Shown here: piece by piece, positions 57,203 through 60,568 of the stretch
Numbering within the stretch: position 1 is the stretch's first letter
How the letters are laid out: each line of letters opens with the position of its first letter
From: Anaerolineae bacterium
GTDB lineage: Bacteria; Chloroflexota; Anaerolineae; Epilineales; JAHCIE01
DNA: 64,000 bases
Reading direction: 5' to 3'
Assembly (NCBI GenBank): GCA_034431435.1
Contig: DAOUDG010000084.1
Location: 78,591 to 142,590, forward strand
Made by a program: the position numbers and the translations under genes
Notes under the pieces: generated by a model
Databases searched by the model: none
Seen by the model: the letters and a program-made list of their open reading frames with translations, nothing else
Told to the model about the DNA's origin: nothing

Positions 57203-57217
57203 TTGTTCGGAGCCTGC

Positions 57218-60200
57218 ATGGACCTGTCCCATCTCAACGACCGCCAGCGCGAGGCCGTCACCGCCCCCGATGGCCCCACCCTGGTTCTGGCCGGGCCTGG
57301 CTCCGGCAAGACTCGCGTCCTCACCTACCGCGTCGCCCACCTGGTCAAGGACCGCGGCATCTCACCCCGCGCCATCATGGCCGTGACCTTTACCAACAAG
57401 GCGGCGCGGGAGATGAAGGCGCGGCTGGGCAAGGTCATCGGTGAGGCGGCCCTGGCCGAGCTGACCATCGGTACGTTCCACGCCGTGTGCGCCCGCATCC
57501 TGCGGGTCGATGGGCAGTATGTCGGCCTGGAACGCGCCTTCGTCATCTTCGACACTGATGACCAGACCGCCCTGGTCAAGCAGATCGTCCAGGACCTGAA
57601 TCTCAACGATAAGCTGTACCGCCCGGCGGCCCTGCTGGGGGCCATCTCCAACGCCAAGAACGACCTCATCCCACCCGAGGCCTACACCCCACCCACCCAC
57701 TGGCACGAGATCGCCCGCCGCGTCTACGAGCGCTATCAGGCCGCGCTGCTCACCAATAACGCCGTCGACTTCGACGACCTGCTGATGAAGACGGCCGAGT
57801 TGCTGCGCGACAACCCGGCCGTGCTGGACAAGTACCGCCGCCGCTACGCTCACATTCTGGTCGACGAGTTCCAGGATACCAACAGCGCGCAGTACCAGCT
57901 CGTCCGTCTCCTGGCGGGCGACGGCGGCAACCTGTTCGTCGTGGGCGACGAGGATCAATGCCTCCCAGCGGGCACGCCGGTTGCCACGCCTGACGGCCCG
58001 CGCCCCATCGAGACTCTGGCCGTCGGGAACAGGGTGACGGCGGCCCACGGGCGCGGCGTGGCGGGGGCGGCGACCATCGAGCGAGTGCGCGAGAAGGTGT
58101 ACCACGGGCCGTTAGTGAGCATCGTGACGCAGCGCGGCCATCAGCTGCGGGCCACCCCCAACCACATGCTGTTCGCCCGCCTGGGCCTGCCCATCGACCG
58201 CCACTATGTCTATCTCATGTACCGTCGCGACAAGGGCTATCGCGTCGGCCTGGCGCAGGGCGCGCATGGCGACGGCGTTCACCCCGAGTTGGTGTCCGGC
58301 CTGCGGCAGCACGGCAACCAGGAGCACGCCGACAAGCTGTGGCTGCTGCGAGTGTGCGCCTCCCGCGCCGAGGCCCAGTACTACGAAGCCCTGTACGCCG
58401 CCGAGTATGGCCTGCCGACATCCGTCTTCCACACCACAGGCCGCCCCACGGCGCTAGACCAGCCCTGGCTCGACCGCCTGTACGCCGAGATCGACACCGA
58501 GGCGCGGGCGCGGCGGCTGATGGCCGATCTTCACCTGTATGCCGACTACCCGCATCACCGCCCGAAGGGTGTGGCCGGCGAGCGTCTGCCTGACCGGATC
58601 GCGGTCCAGGTGACCATGTTCAGCGCTACGCGCCGCTCCGCTGGCGGGCAGTGGCACGCCCACCGCGCTACCCTAAACACGACGGACGCGGCGTTGCGCG
58701 AGCGCCTGGAGGCGCGGGGCTACGCCACGCGCCCCGGCCGACGCGCCGCGTGGCGCTGGGATGGGCAGCGGCTCGCTTTTGGCGAGGTGGAAGGGCTGGC
58801 GGCGGCGGTCTCTGAGGCGGGGGGTAGGCTGGAGGTGGCGCGGGCGGCCTGCCTGACCGAGACGCGCCGTACGGACGGCACGACCCTCAAGTTCGATTTC
58901 CACCCAGCCAGCCACATTCACCCGACGATGATCGTGCCGGTTCTGGAAGACGGGCGCATCGTCGACGACGATGTCGTGACGGTGGAGTGGCTCGACTACG
59001 AGGGGCGCATCTACGACCTGGACGTGACCGCCGTCCACAACTACGTGGCGGGTGGCCTTGTCGCCCACAACTCCATCTACTCCTGGCGAGGGGCTGACTT
59101 CCGCAACGTGATGCGCTTCCGCGACGACTACCCCGAGGCGCAGGTCATCCTGTTGGAGCAGAACTACCGCTCCTCCAAGAACATCCTCGACGCGGCCCAG
59201 GGCGTCATCCGTGGCAATCGCATGCGCCACCCCAAGGCGCTGTGGACGGAGAAGGCTGAAGGGCTGAAGATTCAGGTCTACGAGGCGTACAACGAGCAGG
59301 AAGAGGCCGATTACGTGGTTGGCGAGATTCAGCGTCTGGTGGCCCGCCAGCAGGCGCGCTATAGCGACGTCGCCGTCATGTATCGTACCAACGCCCAGTC
59401 GCGCTCGCTGGAAGATGCCTTCGTGCGGCGCAGCATCCCCTACAAGCTGGTCGGCTCGACGCGCTTCTACGAGCGGCGTGAGGTCAAGGATATCCTGGCC
59501 TACCTGCGCCTGGCCCACAACCCCTTCGACACCATCAGCCTGCGCCGCGTCATCAACGTGCCGGGGCGCGGCATCGGCGACAAGACCGTCGCCCTGCTGT
59601 GGGCGTGGGCCGAACGCCTGGACGTGCCGCCCTACACCGCCCTCAGCCTGCTGCGCGACGCCCACACCGCCGCTACGCCGCTGCCCATGCCGTCGCCCTT
59701 CGACAAGCGCGCCGAGCGCGCCCTGCTGGACTTCGCCGCCATCCTCGACGACATGGTGGCGGCCAAGCTGGCCCTGGACGCGCAGGCGCTCCTCGACCGT
59801 ATCATCGAGCGCATCGGCTACCAGGACTATCTGCGCGACGGGACGGCCGAGGGTGACAGTCGCTGGGAAAACGTGCTGGAACTACGCACGGTGGCGGGCG
59901 ACTACGCGGCGTTGCCGCTGGACGAGGGCCTGCCGACGCTGCTGGAGGAGGTGTCCCTCGTCGCCGACGTGGACGAACTGGATGAGAAGAAGGACGCCGT
60001 GACGCTGCTGACCCTCCATGCCGCCAAGGGGTTGGAGTATGGCACGGTGTTCCTGGTCGGCCTGGAAGAGGGCATCCTGCCCCACAAGCGCAGCCTGGAG
60101 GACCCATCCCCCGACGCGCTGGAAGAGGAGCGCCGCCTGGCCTACGTGGGCATGACCCGCGCCCAGGAGCGACTCTACCTGGTGTATGCCTTCCGCCGCG

Positions 60201-60568
60201 CCCTGTGGGGGCAGAGCAACCTCACCGAGCCGTCGCGCTTCCTGCGCGACGTGCCCCACCCCCTGGTCGATGCCAGGACCGAGCGCAAAACCGCGCCGCT
60301 GCCACCGCGCCAGGGCATCGCCGCCAGTCGCGGCCTGCCTGGCCCGTCGAGCGCGTCCGCGGCCGGCCGCAACAGCTTCAAGTTCGGCGAGCGCCCCGCC
60401 GCTACCCCGGCCGCCGCCCGCTACCGCCCTGGCGACAAGGTGACGCACCCCGTCTTCGGCGACGGCACGGTCCTGGCGAGCAAGACCAGCGGCGACGACG
60501 AGGAGGTGGACGTCATCTTCAAGGGCGGCGCCAAGAAGCTGCTGGGGAGCTACTTGAAGAAGAAGTAG
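57218..60568 (+). CDS. pcrA: ATP-dependent DNA helicase PcrA/UvrD (SF1) interrupted by an intein
   Basis: Motif I AGPGSGKT, motif Ia, motif II DEFQDTN, motif III split (VVGDEDQ | SIYSWRGA). C-terminal PcrA-type Tudor-like tail (GDKVTHPVFGDGTVL...). 1116 aa from the ATG at 57218, versus about 740 aa for intein-less homologs. Confidence 0.9.
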   Translation: MDLSHLNDRQREAVTAPDGPTLVLAGPGSGKTRVLTYRVAHLVKDRGISPRAIMAVTFTNKAAREMKARLGKVIGEAALAELTIGTFHAVCARILRVDGQYVGLERAFVIFDTDDQTALVKQIVQDLNLNDKLYRPAALLGAISNAKNDLIPPEAYTPPTHWHEIARRVYERYQAALLTNNAVDFDDLLMKTAELLRDNPAVLDKYRRRYAHILVDEFQDTNSAQYQLVRLLAGDGGNLFVVGDEDQCLPAGTPVATPDGPRPIETLAVGNRVTAAHGRGVAGAATIERVREKVYHGPLVSIVTQRGHQLRATPNHMLFARLGLPIDRHYVYLMYRRDKGYRVGLAQGAHGDGVHPELVSGLRQHGNQEHADKLWLLRVCASRAEAQYYEALYAAEYGLPTSVFHTTGRPTALDQPWLDRLYAEIDTEARARRLMADLHLYADYPHHRPKGVAGERLPDRIAVQVTMFSATRRSAGGQWHAHRATLNTTDAALRERLEARGYATRPGRRAAWRWDGQRLAFGEVEGLAAAVSEAGGRLEVARAACLTETRRTDGTTLKFDFHPASHIHPTMIVPVLEDGRIVDDDVVTVEWLDYEGRIYDLDVTAVHNYVAGGLVAHNSIYSWRGADFRNVMRFRDDYPEAQVILLEQNYRSSKNILDAAQGVIRGNRMRHPKALWTEKAEGLKIQVYEAYNEQEEADYVVGEIQRLVARQQARYSDVAVMYRTNAQSRSLEDAFVRRSIPYKLVGSTRFYERREVKDILAYLRLAHNPFDTISLRRVINVPGRGIGDKTVALLWAWAERLDVPPYTALSLLRDAHTAATPLPMPSPFDKRAERALLDFAAILDDMVAAKLALDAQALLDRIIERIGYQDYLRDGTAEGDSRWENVLELRTVAGDYAALPLDEGLPTLLEEVSLVADVDELDEKKDAVTLLTLHAAKGLEYGTVFLVGLEEGILPHKRSLEDPSPDALEEERRLAYVGMTRAQERLYLVYAFRRALWGQSNLTEPSRFLRDVPHPLVDARTERKTAPLPPRQGIAASRGLPGPSSASAAGRNSFKFGERPAATPAAARYRPGDKVTHPVFGDGTVLASKTSGDDEEVDVIFKGGAKKLLGSYLKKK
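57959..59071 (+). mobile_element. Intein (371 aa) inserted in helicase motif III of PcrA/UvrD
   Basis: Begins with Cys (CLPAGTPVATPDG, block A), block B TPNH (LRATPNHMLF), C-terminal blocks F/G (IYDLDVTAVHNYVAGGLVAHN) followed by +1 Ser of the extein (SIYSWRGA). About 220-aa central region, larger than a mini-intein. Confidence 0.85.

Follow-up and report, generated by a model that had tools for sequence, protein, structure and literature searches.

What does the large insert that splits a helicase gene of this Anaerolineae bacterium contain, and does it behave as a mobile element or as a part of its host protein? The gene lies toward the end of the window (the whole 64,000-nucleotide stretch of DNA that was analysed). 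The first-pass annotation had read the insert as a 371-aa intein in motif III of a PcrA/UvrD helicase, with a central region oversized for a mini-intein and free of LAGLIDADG or HNH signatures, perhaps a degenerate or unusual homing endonuclease. By textbook account, the homing endonucleases found in inteins are of LAGLIDADG type and, rarely, of HNH type. We consider it likely that the insert is a class-1 intein in motif III of a PcrA/UvrD-family helicase with a nested homing endonuclease of GIY-YIG type, not of LAGLIDADG or HNH type.

The host open reading frame runs over 57203..60568 (+ strand) and encodes 1121 aa from a TTG start at 57203. The stop codon of the upstream gene abuts 57203, and the gene call of an independent assembly takes ATG 57218 as the start (1116 aa), which is likely the true start of the helicase instead of the TTG. 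The helicase and the splicing parts of the insert are laid out as follows.

57218..57958, + strand: N-extein, PcrA/UvrD-family helicase (Pfam UvrD-helicase at residues 11-253, E=1e-85)
57959..59071, + strand: complete class-1 intein, 371 aa, Cys1...His370-Asn371 (from the empty allele L209 and 164 homologous inteins)
57959..58183, + strand: Hint splicing domain, N-terminal part, intein aa 1-75 (TIGR01445 at aa 1-72; Pfam Hint_2/Hint)
58919..59071, + strand: Hint splicing domain, C-terminal part, intein aa 321-371 (Pfam Intein_splicing at aa 331-371; TIGR01443)
59072..60568, + strand: C-extein including the stop codon (Pfam UvrD_C, UvrD_C_2 and PcrA_UvrD_tudor)

The N-extein contains motifs Q, I, Ia and II and breaks off halfway through motif III, at VVGDEDQ, and the C-extein resumes with Ser+1 in the second half of motif III (SIYSWRGA) and continues through motifs IV-VI and UvrD_C to a C-terminal Tudor domain. 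The UvrD-helicase and UvrD_C domains score far above threshold. The top NCBIfam model is pcrA with 839 bits, and since its equivalog cut-off is 911, the label PcrA/UvrD-family is safe and identity as PcrA is not proven. No second UvrD-family gene was found within the 64-kb window. The helicase may well be essential, in which case splicing would be obligate.

The translation of 57959-59071 bears out the intein reading residue by residue. Cys1 (block A) and the TPNH of block B (T66-P-N-H69, residues 66-69) lie in the N-terminal Hint part, and Asp353 (block F) and the His370-Asn371 of block G, within the terminal VAHN, in the C-terminal part; Ser+1 follows, and the helicase motif is split as VGDEDQ/SIYSWRGA. 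All three intein models score above cut-off (Pfam Intein_splicing PF14890, 43.3 bits against 35.8; TIGR01445 intein_Nterm, 28.6 against 24.5; TIGR01443 intein_Cterm, 19.0 against 15.6), PDB inteins are matched by sequence with a best E=1.5e-4, and the C-terminal Hint part can be aligned to PDB inteins, the Pho RadA intein among them. All 164 homologous inteins have C1 and H69, at least 162 of them keep T66, D353, H370 and N371, and the family retains a Ser or Cys at +1. The pcrA model TIGR01073 matches the unspliced protein in two pieces and the spliced protein in one collinear match (residues 8-745, model positions 2-720 of 725). These hallmarks and the interruption of the motif are far beyond chance, and the boundaries, the splicing motifs and the collinear host protein after excision are established computationally.

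It is thus expected from the sequence that the 371-aa intein splices. A precursor of about 1116 aa would be translated and its Hint halves (aa 1-75 and 321-371) would fold together; an N-S acyl shift at Cys1, transesterification to Ser+1, cyclisation of Asn371 and an O-N shift would then yield the free 371-aa intein and a helicase of 745/750 aa in which motif III is whole. Canonical large inteins (PI-SceI, PI-PfuI and the HNH types) likewise have their Hint domain split by an endonuclease between blocks B and F, and share the class-1 chemistry (Cys1, TxxH, His-Asn, +1 Ser/Cys), the insertion in a highly conserved motif of a DNA-metabolism enzyme and the presence/absence polymorphism; the intein in the window differs from them in its nested domain, a GIY-YIG fold with an alpha/beta module and without LAGLIDADG or HNH.

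The insertion does not stem from a chimeric assembly. All 80 genome loci examined share its architecture (80/80), and the alignment with a second assembly (L210) runs through the whole region without gaps at 99.8% identity. Moreover, a syntenic relative (L209) carries an empty-site allele: its alignment breaks off at 57958/57959 and picks up again at about 59068-59072, with 97% protein identity, 93.7% DNA identity and the intein precisely absent. Its junction peptide, VGDEDQSIYSWRGA, is identical to the spliced junction, and its empty site reads GTCGTGGGCGACGAGGATCAA up to the insertion point and TCGATCTACTCCTGGCGTGGCGCG after it. In a search with the spliced protein, the intein was carried by 6 of the 120 nearest helicase clusters, interleaved with empty alleles; relatives with helicase identity of 99% and 75% have it, and those at 97% and 70-72% do not. 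A co-conversion tract was sought around the site, and the filled and empty alleles diverge at a roughly even rate; a run of 48 identical bases on the 5' side of the insertion site is no more than marginally unusual. Among the matches listed from a metagenome scan, uninterrupted VGDEDQSIYSWRG coding stretches belonged to distant helicases only (at most 52% identity). The fixed insertion site and the presence/absence polymorphism are established computationally, and the patchy distribution, with precise absence in a syntenic relative, fits an optional mobile element and not a fixed host function.

It is also evident that the element is less of a one-off than the first-pass annotation implied, because the intein allele is widespread. 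The domain family counts 1,770 cluster representatives and extends over nine or more bacterial phyla, with copies in phages too (these came from a viral scan with a smaller family alignment); an earlier impression of rarity, from seven matches in a word-indexed homology search, was abandoned after an exhaustive profile search. In all loci examined the element is confined to one site in one helicase family. Candidate free-standing versions of the domain were discarded, since every short hit is either a fragment at the end of a contig or a frameshifted piece.

The central region of about 245-255 aa has no Pfam, PHROG, NCBIfam or PDB match by direct sequence search, the window's own intein sequence has no Pfam match in it, and a 60-sequence family profile against PDB sequences gave a chance hit only. 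A whole-intein AF2 model from a 7-sequence alignment was beta-rich with pLDDT about 70-90 at the ends and poor in the centre (pLDDT 58.6). The insert modelled alone from a 60-sequence alignment gave pLDDT 93.2 and pTM 0.87, and resolves into three parts.

58190..58438, + strand: GIY-YIG-like nuclease subdomain, intein aa 78-160 (beta-beta-alpha-beta-alpha topology)
58439..58594, + strand: two-helix linker and then an extended loop, intein aa 161-212 (AF2 secondary structure, family conservation)
58595..58918, + strand: C-terminal alpha/beta subdomain, intein aa 213 to about 300, and connector to aa 320

The first part has a three-stranded antiparallel sheet with flanking helices in the beta-beta-alpha-beta-alpha order of the GIY-YIG fold. 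This fold assignment, like the conservation across the family, is established computationally. Pfam GIY-YIG is the sole family matched by several members (7 of 60 at E<=1), in a single register covering positions 2-69 of the 78 of model PF01541 (best E=5e-4), and three of ten isolated subdomains match in the same register; all members tested stay below the gathering score of 22.6 bits (best, 20.7 bits). Foldseek against BFVD returned three proteins with the same module first and then mostly GIY-YIG, Seg and NUMOD homing endonucleases, and Foldseek against PDB gave no significant match for the insert. The best structural matches of the nuclease core are Slx1, the UvrC N-terminal domain and GIY-YIG restriction enzymes (Eco29kI, Hpy188I, 9u75), which serve cellular repair or restriction with other partner domains and resemble the core at the level of fold and motif. 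UvrC shares 27% identity over 55 aligned residues with the core, VYRMY being paired with VYLMY in the GIY strand. A homology search with I-TevI returned nine close relatives, and hhalign of the family profile against single I-TevI, single UvrC and a narrow I-TevI profile gave nothing significant.

The conserved residues of the nuclease subdomain (Y85, the 'GIY' Tyr; G93-Y94-R95-x-G97, the 'YIG' strand; R118, E122 and E143) point the same way. Y85 occurs in 164/164 inteins, within V-Y-L-M, and sits on the GIY Tyr in the Pfam register; Y85, R118 and E143 are each found in at least 160 of 164 and fall at GIY-YIG catalytic positions in the secondary-structure register. The 'YIG' strand reads G93-Y/F94-R95-I/V96-G97, with Tyr in 123 inteins and Phe in 40 at position 94; R95, present in 163/164, may take the place of the 'YIG' Tyr if no bulge is assumed. 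E143 (163/164) is the eighth residue of helix 2 and, in that register, would correspond to I-TevI E75. The catalytic set nevertheless departs from the GIY-YIG canon: an invariant Glu occupies position 122, where the canon has His or Tyr four residues past the Arg, and no equivalent of the conserved Asn after helix 2 was found in the 164 inteins, the segment being Y-G-I-P-T-x-x-F. All these equivalences with I-TevI would hold as far as the secondary-structure register does.

As had been said of the central region, it shows no LAGLIDADG or HNH motif, Pfam match or fold match. An eroded LAGLIDADG or HNH endonuclease is therefore a very improbable reading, even though weak Foldseek hits in PDB include the LAGLIDADG enzymes I-PanMI, I-OnuI, I-LtrI, I-TnaI and I-DmoI (prob at most about 0.6, over about 75-85 columns); the source of such hits is probably the beta-sheet in the C-terminal subdomain. 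We give still less credence, next to none, to a true endonuclease encoded in another frame or on the opposite strand with the in-frame insert as a spacer. Endonucleases so placed have been reported for some actinophage inteins (Gosselin et al. preprint), and long minus-strand ORFs do overlie the insert (58673..59665, 330 aa; 58112..58432, 106 aa); however, five overlapping ORFs were searched against Pfam without a hit, spurious long ORFs are expected at 68-70% G+C, and the in-frame product has dN/dS of about 0.07-0.10 and a confident fold.

The linker that follows the GIY-YIG-like core has helices at 93-102 and 105-115 in model numbering (+75), and the extended loop after it contains a near-invariant Pro198-His199. 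The C-terminal alpha/beta subdomain is basic, with a net charge of +6 in this copy and a median of +5 in the family; it has R213, H235-R236, R258 and W265-R266 as conserved residues and is a putative DNA-binding and recognition module. The whole would thus have a two-part layout like that of I-TevI, with the GIY-YIG core at aa 78-160, a helical linker and a basic alpha/beta module at aa 213-300 that presumably recognises DNA. At the family level the enzyme would be expected to cleave helicase alleles that lack the intein, in or close to the sequence that encodes motif III, and repair from an intein-bearing copy would then spread the element by homing.

The conservation of the insert bears on whether it is a homing nuclease at all. 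A DNA-binding or regulatory module that couples splicing to DNA or stress, or a helicase-partner nuclease, might instead be kept by selection on the host. Intein and extein divergences are correlated (Pearson 0.96) at nearly equal rates, the GIY-YIG core is the best-conserved part of the intein and more conserved than the helicase (mean pairwise identity 0.655 versus 0.587 for the exteins; dN/dS about 0.07), its catalytic residues are non-canonical, and one site in one helicase family is used in all loci examined. The correlated divergence and the conserved core had made domestication look appealing, a reading that was largely dropped given the empty allele and the patchy distribution among close relatives described above. 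Recurrent re-invasion would also put strong constraint on the endonuclease, homing mainly between close relatives would lead to correlated divergence, and discordant intein/extein pairs exist (e.g. L027 versus L009/L010, 0.70 vs 0.49). Host selection on such a module is thus improbable, and a homing endonuclease of GIY-YIG type remains the preferred reading. Of the two words in the first-pass annotation, 'unusual' is borne out by the GIY-YIG fold in the N-terminal half of the central region, and 'degenerate' finds no support for the family as a whole, given this identity and dN/dS; the copy in the window does carry one substitution at a near-invariant residue.

58310..58312, + strand: His118 codon, CAC (Arg in 160/164 family members)

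The conserved helix-1 Arg of the family is His in this copy, one of four inteins among the 164 with a residue other than Arg at position 118. The closest relatives, L001 and L002, retain Arg118, and the near-identical assembly L210 also has His118, so that the change is not a one-read error. R118 presumably corresponds to the Arg that GIY-YIG enzymes use in catalysis (I-TevI R27). In I-TevI, R27 is needed for catalysis; PDB entries include the I-TevI catalytic-domain mutants R27A and E75A. The replacement of a near-invariant Arg suggests that the endonuclease may be weakened or dead here, with splicing, whose residues are all intact, continuing. We regard it as a real possibility, somewhat short of an even chance, that the endonuclease of this copy is already inactive, the element being a self-splicing passenger in the decay phase after fixation within an otherwise active family. 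The other conserved residues of the insert are all intact, with no indels or frameshifts, the catalytic role of R118 comes from register and not from superposition, and an empty allele diverged by about 6% in DNA argues for recent movement. His can sometimes replace Arg in a phosphate contact, which also counts against a dead copy.

In relation to known systems, GIY-YIG endonucleases were stated not to be known in inteins in 2006 (PMC1564403) and in 2009 (Dassa et al., PMC2677866), and an in-frame GIY-YIG intein endonuclease is unreported in a 2025 survey of non-canonical intein endonucleases and in the searchable intein literature. I-TevI, I-BmoI and the Seg enzymes are encoded in group I introns or free-standing, whereas the domain in the window lies in-frame in an intein; the insert lacks their NUMOD, zinc-finger or helix-turn-helix DNA-binding domains, has Glu instead of His four residues past the Arg and a G-Y/F-R-I-G 'YIG' strand, and its family shows no profile-level similarity to the I-TevI subfamily and stays under the Pfam threshold. 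Comparable in arrangement are the 'fractured genes', in which a free-standing gene for a GIY-YIG or Vsr-like endonuclease separates the halves of a split intein and which were proposed as a route for inteins to acquire such domains (Dassa et al. 2009, PMC2677866). There, too, GIY-YIG sits at an intein insertion point in DNA-metabolism genes, but as a separate ORF with a split intein, whereas the window has a single polypeptide with the nuclease in-frame in a contiguous intein. Sixteen UvrD inteins have been catalogued (Novikova et al.); the catalogued UvrD/PcrA inteins share the host family, and the review text puts them at the P-loop, whereas the window allele is at motif III. The helicases of phi92-like coliphages (e.g. 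Escherichia phage JohannJBalmer, MZ501084) have an annotated intein at the same motif III site (VVGDEFQ/C...SHN/CIYQFRG), and within it a recognisable relative of the central insert described here. In the literature searched, the internal domain of the UvrD/PcrA or phi92-like inteins is neither named nor characterised.

Whether the intein is the founding example of a widespread, hitherto undescribed class with an in-frame GIY-YIG homing endonuclease, the fused end-product of the 'fractured gene' model, is to our judgement a matter of even odds. Such a class would be dedicated to motif III of UvrD-like helicases; its module for DNA recognition would be new, and its active site (Tyr85, Arg95, Arg118, Glu122, Glu143) a variant one. 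It would stand beside the LAGLIDADG and HNH types and the Vsr-like and EndoVII-like ones that were recently reported out of frame.

If this is true, GIY-YIG would be a third major nuclease superfamily captured in-frame by inteins, and the missing fused state between 'fractured genes' and large inteins would be supplied. A large domain family would also have been absent from Pfam, NCBIfam and PHROGs, and its proteins are consequently annotated simply as helicases. Finally, the insert would be a new two-part nuclease scaffold whose target, the codons for motif III in UvrD-like helicases, is fixed and highly conserved, and a tractable one, because cultured phages of E. coli carry relatives and the sequence of a natural empty site is known.

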